From assembly GCF_044324875.1 (NCBI RefSeq), contig NZ_CP172185.1: DNA of 64,000 nt. The stretch is one strand, 5' to 3'. The notes under the pieces were generated by a model, which was given only the letters and a program-made list of their open reading frames with translations, had not been told where the DNA came from and made no database searches. Within the stretch, counting starts at the first letter, position 1; each line of letters begins with the position of its first letter. The position numbers were made by a program, and so were the translations under genes. Shown piece by piece: positions 25,889-25,936 of this stretch. The DNA is from Escherichia coli. Its GTDB lineage: Bacteria > Pseudomonadota > Gammaproteobacteria > Enterobacterales > Enterobacteriaceae.

Positions 25889-25936
25889 GCGCCAGCATCG
25901 CCGGATGCGATGCTGGCGCATCTTATCCGGCCTACG
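25889..25936. repeat. REP-like palindromic element / hairpin between convergent yhfS and frlR
   Basis: 12-bp perfect stem gcgccagcatcg / cgatgctggcgc around loop ccggatg, followed by atcttatccggcctac, which resembles the REP consensus. Confidence 0.55.

Follow-up and report, generated by a model that had tools for sequence, protein, structure and literature searches.

What is a perfect hairpin doing in the gap between two genes that are transcribed toward each other, and how did it come to be so perfect? In the 64,000-nt stretch of Escherichia coli DNA analyzed here (the window), such a hairpin lies between yhfS and frlR, and a sequence-only reading had offered several answers at once: that it has a perfect 12-bp stem followed by a REP-like tail, and that it probably acts as a bidirectional terminator or as an element that stabilizes mRNA. 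These are answers to rather different questions (what the element is, where its parts came from, and what it does for the genes on either side), and we have tried to take them one at a time. We argue that the element is a canonical REP joined to 11 nt that repeat its core in inverted orientation, that transcription terminates downstream of it, and that the hairpin protects the 3' ends of mRNAs, a combined reading that we hold to be probable, if by no means secure.

The stem, to begin with, is real. The letters agree exactly with what had been described, and the stem is indeed perfect, but its size had been underestimated: folding adds a C-G pair, which makes 13 bp around a loop of 5 nt rather than 12 bp around a loop of 7 nt (Table 1). 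The folding energy bears this out, with a dG of -26.6 kcal/mol for the extended hairpin (z = -5.2) and none of 200 shuffles as stable; when the minus strand is folded, the stem grows to 16 pairs by including G·U. This is also the longest perfect stem of the window, and mononucleotide shuffles of the window yield 0.03 stems of at least 12 bp, which together rule out a chance origin. The placement of the hairpin between convergent genes holds as well, matching the annotation of strain Ecol_316, which is 100% identical over 401 bases; the window is not from K-12.

Table 1. Coordinates of the hairpin, of the REP and of the flanking genes in the window
Feature	Position	Strand	Remarks
yhfS	24745-25830	+	convergent; upstream of the hairpin
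yhfS stop codon (TAA)	25828-25830	+	58 nt upstream of the hairpin
Extended perfect hairpin	25889-25919		13 bp, 25889-25901 with 25907-25919; loop 25902-25906, CGGAT (RNA CGGAU)
Locus-specific left arm, GCGCCAGCATC	25889-25899		exact inverted copy of the REP core, 25909-25919
Left arm in the sequence-only reading, gcgccagcatcg	25889-25900		
Loop in the sequence-only reading, ccggatg	25901-25907		
Right arm in the sequence-only reading, cgatgctggcgc	25908-25919		
REP-like tail in the sequence-only reading, atcttatccggcctac	25920-25935		
Complete single REP, 36 nt, GCCGGATGCGATGCTGGCGCATCTTATCCGGCCTAC on the + strand	25900-25935	-	GTAG-first on the - strand; the + strand has the 'iREP' orientation
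REP foot, CTAC on the + strand (GTAG on the - strand)	25932-25935	-	from the sequence; PMC3333891
frlR	25938-26669	-	convergent; its mRNA holds the REP GTAG-first
frlR stop codon (TAA)	25938-25940	-	2 nt to the REP GTAG, 5 nt to the canonical stem, 15-18 nt to the extended stem

What, then, had been called REP-like? The label was sound but too modest, and the part of it that confined the repeat to the tail after the hairpin does not stand, for the repeat is a full, canonical REP that also covers the hairpin's loop and the whole of its right arm. Compared with the degenerate REP pattern, it has 0 mismatches. Folded alone, it is an imperfect palindrome of 8 + 5 pairs with a 1x1 mismatch (dG -21.5, z -5.6), in which C25908 and U25923 are unpaired. 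In other words, it has the features by which E. coli REPs (the y, z1 and z2 palindromic units) are defined (PMC3333891): an imperfect palindrome of 30-40 nt, a GTAG/CTAC foot, unpaired bases in the stem, an extragenic position (here, between the yhfS and frlR stop codons) and occurrence at multiple loci. The same 36-mer is found within BIMEs of other E. coli, at loiP-speB, caiF-caiE and ycjW-ompG, and a 401-base query around the hairpin finds a median of 4 places per genome. We take this REP to be of the z type, going by the family consensus and by its partnership with y-type REPs in those BIMEs elsewhere.

Neither the spacer nor the rest of the 64-kb window holds a second REP, which leaves this one single rather than part of a BIME; single REPs account for 84 of the 584 in K-12 (PMC3333891). 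The locus is like a BIME or a REPIN in that REP sequence, repeated in inverted orientation, folds into a long hairpin, but it is unlike one in that the inverted copy takes in 11-13 nt of the core, with no linker, no second GTAG foot and one REP in all. Its likeness to a single z-type E. coli REP extends to the length of 36 nt, the mismatched palindrome, the foot, the position at gene 3' ends and the identical copies elsewhere. REPs at the ends of genes have been known since 1984, and the element is of this known kind: a REP at a gene end, at a locus that has been well studied, present in K-12 and in thousands of other genomes.

The left arm is another matter. It is specific to this locus, and the first two bases of the REP (GC) complete it to make the left side of the extended hairpin. 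Other copies of the identical REP carry different 5' flanks, unrelated to the arm at all four that were compared, and we have for this reason ruled out that the arm belongs to the REP family or that it is a BIME linker; the linker at caiF-caiE, CAGCTATC, resembles it only partially. What sets this copy of the REP apart from the others, that is, is an 11-nt flank complementary to the core, which yields a longer perfect hairpin that beats the canonical fold. The two folds share bases and are mutually exclusive. When the energy of the competing REP fold is computed with the left arm forbidden from pairing, the extended hairpin wins by 9.5 kcal/mol in plus-strand RNA and by 11.2 in minus-strand RNA, and by 10.5 and 9.1 with DNA parameters. 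The extended hairpin is thus predicted to replace the mismatched REP stem on either strand, whether as RNA or as single-stranded DNA. An arm that comes from the flank and overrides the REP fold could alter how exonucleases, TnpA-REP and ribosomes at the frlR stop interact with the element, and the locus, with its arm present or scrambled, would make a clean natural test case for how far the functions of REPs depend on their structure.

How might a REP have come by such an arm? Most likely, the arm was made by snap-back or template-switch copying, or else it is what remains of a second, inverted REP. Snap-back or template switching fits because the REP's terminal GC serves at once as the first bases of the inverted copy. 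Products of template switching at quasipalindromes are of a type known from the mutagenesis literature, and the arm is like them in being a short inverted copy that lies beside its template and shares a terminal GC with it; it differs from them in that the event is ancient and fixed, and among the E. coli genomes carrying the locus we found no intermediate allele without the arm. As for a second REP, a TCCGGC motif lies on the complementary strand 13 nt beyond the arm, at 25871-25876, and arm and motif together could be its remnant.

The junction of hairpin, REP and frlR is present in about 3,298 of 5,426 complete E. coli genomes, and the element was found in every genome carrying the locus; a 37-mer that spans the hairpin occurs just once per genome in 2,960 genomes and matches exactly in 2,946. 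The O157/O55 lineage (333 genomes) has A>G at 25894 and C>T at 25917, each of which turns its pair into G·U on the plus strand, and one strain, OkiPb01695, has only the A>G at 25894. Across the E. coli alleles, there are no two-sided compensatory changes, so that variation in the population neither discriminates between the folds nor proves selection on RNA structure. Strain E69 has not one substitution across the 47 nt that make up hairpin and REP (P about 0.007-0.008), with flanks that diverge by ~10% (84 of 831 positions in yhfS and 71 of 732 in frlR). This invariance suggests constraint or homogenization, as modest evidence that falls short of significance when the 11-nt arm is taken by itself, and the conservation of the REP part could come from homogenization among REP copies.

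When a single genome of each species was scanned for the 23 nt of the inner stem and loop, CAGCATCGCCGGATGCGATGCTG, E. coli was the only species with a related match. The two remaining hits, one in a MAG contig of Ruminococcus (4382-4404) and one in a MAG contig of Flavobacteriales (312-334), are unrelated 9-bp hairpins; nothing else in either contig resembles the window, which points to coincidence and not to contamination by E. coli. A metagenome contig encodes an FrlR that is 90% identical and has the hairpin with one mismatch; its coverage is 1.1x and its identity a mosaic of 77-100%, and we have not relied on it. The element after frlR is, in Cronobacter, a canonical intrinsic terminator with a GC stem and a T-run, CCCGCGCCCGCGCGGTTTTT (2233-2260 of the compared sequence), and in Metakosakonia a different, y-like REP in the opposite orientation, CCCGGATGCGGCGTAAAGACGCCTTATCCGGGCTAC (2233-2280), beyond which comes trpS. 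The different elements at the 3' end of frlR in these two relatives suggest that a site for forming 3' ends has been filled differently by lineage.

To the left of the hairpin, the spacer varies much more than the hairpin does when the window is compared with K-12: between 25831 and 25883, there are an 8-nt indel (TTCGGCAA), 6 substitutions in 45 aligned bases and a 52-bp indel, with several of the substitutions clustered about 25867-25874, and there are 0 changes between 25884 and 25937. A 52-bp G-rich element, CTCGCCCCTTTGGGGAGAGGGTTAGGGTGAGGGGAACGTACGGGATGTAAAAT, adjoins the hairpin in K-12, O157/O55, E2863 and E69 and is absent from the window, where its insertion point would be 25883/25884 (it occupies about 470-521 of the compared K-12 sequence). 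It corresponds to 'HPG1,' a putative G-quadruplex/hairpin switch between frlR and yhfS at 3504863 (PMC5100583). In O157/O55 and in OkiPb01695, trpS directly faces frlR with no yhfS-yhfZ between them, as it does in Metakosakonia, and because of these arrangements, the yhf cluster looks like an island with its right edge near 25870. In other strains, yhfS adjoins yhfL, the frl operon is absent and IS1 lies nearby.

What could such an element do for the genes on either side of it? Among the roles proposed earlier, stabilization of mRNA is the best supported and is plausible, by analogy both with REPs and with the stem-loops of Rho-terminated transcripts. In K-12 coordinates, frlR ends at 3504783 and the hairpin occupies 3504802-3504832, and a Rho termination region, antisense to yhfS, peaks at 3504972 (+) with a Rho score of 3.64 and p 1.3e-6 (eLife 2021), which is ~140 nt past the hairpin on the frlR strand. 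This region comes from DirectRNA-seq with and without bicyclomycin (eLife 2021, supplementary file 2), in 800-nt windows and hence at coarse resolution, and the score belongs to K-12, where the hairpin adjoins the extra 52-bp element that the window lacks. Rho-terminated transcripts end at stable stem-loops without a U-tract, which block PNPase and RNase II (Dar and Sorek, PMC6061677), and 24% of these protective stem-loops are REP-associated (PMC6061677). The hairpin is like the stem-loops of Dar and Sorek (2018, PMC6061677) in being stable, in having no U-tract and in having a Rho region downstream (in K-12, on the frlR strand); it differs from them in that the K-12 Term-seq tables of eLife 2021 list no 3' end at 3504700-3505099, both operons being weakly expressed and at low coverage there.

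By this analogy, the element is most likely an exonuclease-blocking 3' stem-loop of the frlR mRNA and probably of the yhfS mRNA. That is, RNA polymerase would not be stopped by the hairpin itself; transcripts of frlR, and probably those of yhfS, would continue through it and end further downstream (on the frlR strand in K-12, presumably by the action of Rho), and 3'-to-5' exonucleases would then trim them as far as the hairpin's foot, so that the hairpin would both define and stabilize the mature mRNA 3' ends. To block such trimming at the 3' ends of mRNAs is the classical role of REPs.

On termination at the hairpin, we part company with the earlier proposal of a bidirectional terminator. A single bidirectional intrinsic terminator, common to the convergent yhfS and frlR transcripts, would share with our element the high stability and G+C-richness of the hairpin and its place between convergent genes, and the plus-strand tail AUCUUAU, with 4 U in 7, might allow some weak termination in the yhfS direction. 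But the stem runs into AUCUUAUCC on the plus strand and GUUGAGGGG on the minus strand; the tails scored for a U-tract, ATCTTATCC (+) and GTTGAGGGG (-), both fall short of one; and a scan for intrinsic terminators returned no site at the hairpin. Because neither strand has a U-tract, we have rejected the identification as an intrinsic or bidirectional terminator. The hairpin is also without the symmetry of A-tract, stem and T-tract that marks bidirectional terminators, of which the window holds textbook examples at 2797-2824, 15630-15653, 52837-52863 and 60608-60633, each with an A-tract, a perfect G+C-rich stem of 10-12 bp and a T-tract. With the Rho-dependent control of read-through in K-12 mapping downstream of the hairpin on the frlR strand, it seems to us very unlikely that the two transcripts share an intrinsic terminator here.

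Might the element instead do nothing at all? It could be a functionless relic of selfish DNA, a REP that inserted by frlR and gained its extra arm from a replication error or from the decay of a second REP, and that has persisted by being harmless, its arms kept identical by palindrome-templated repair. REPs are, after all, repeats that resemble mobile elements and are handled by TnpA-REP (PMC3333891), the spacer around this one is a hotspot for indels and rearrangements, relatives have a different REP or none at the site, and compensatory covariation is absent. We still think a relic unlikely, although a serious contender, in view of the 47 nt that stayed free of changes amid about 10% flanking divergence and of the element's presence in every genome with the locus, both of which mutational bias could also explain. 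A quite different thought is that the arm tunes the translation of frlR. Under a rule of Liang, Rudd and Deutscher (2015), cited in PMC12306157, a ribosome terminating at a stop codon is stalled by a REP stem lying within 15 nt of that codon, and the arm would put the stable stem 15-18 nt past the frlR stop where the canonical stem is 5 nt from it, weakening or timing the stall; the GTAG lies just 2 nt from that stop, and the REP precedes the arm in the frlR mRNA, so that the canonical fold can form first. The distance is borderline, however, and the reading, built as it is on predicted folds, is speculative; we give it a slim chance. TnpA-REP needs a GTAG foot together with a stem mismatch, and a REP mutated to a perfect palindrome is neither bound nor cleaved in vitro (PMC3333891); this copy of the REP, with the extended perfect fold dominating its predicted single-stranded DNA, may be a poor substrate. 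One can even imagine the arm as a fixed 'anti-REP,' which by moving the stem away from the frlR stop would relieve or time the stalling and at the same time hide the GTAG-plus-mismatch from TnpA-REP, so freezing this copy of the REP. The chance that this is so is slimmer still, and if it were so, a template switch would have produced a modifier of REP function that evolved at this one locus. Most remote of all is a role at the level of DNA, through binding of gyrase, HU or IHF, through a cruciform or through a nucleoid-organizing RNA like naRNA4. The perfect 13-bp inverted repeat would be in keeping with it, as would a match to Rfam's naRNA4 (RF02564), a REP-derived nucleoid-associated RNA, at 33.8 bits (E 4e-4) on the plus strand and 24.3 bits on the minus strand, but these scores lie far under the gathering threshold of 59.5, the match is explained by the common REP sequence, and we have not assigned the element to that family; the locus has, moreover, a single REP and no linker to carry IHF.

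The stem-loop that we take to be protective at the 3' end of frlR is not the only long palindrome beside that gene. The spacer between frlD and frlR holds a perfect 12-bp palindrome, ACGTTGGCGTGA-N6-TCACGCCAACGT, at 26734-26763 (-), 5 nt past the frlD stop. It lacks a T-run, and downstream lies a perfect -10 hexamer, TATAAT (26708-26703), 34 nt before the frlR ATG, an arrangement in which the palindrome may be a 3' stem-loop for frlABCD, with frlR's own promoter coming after it.
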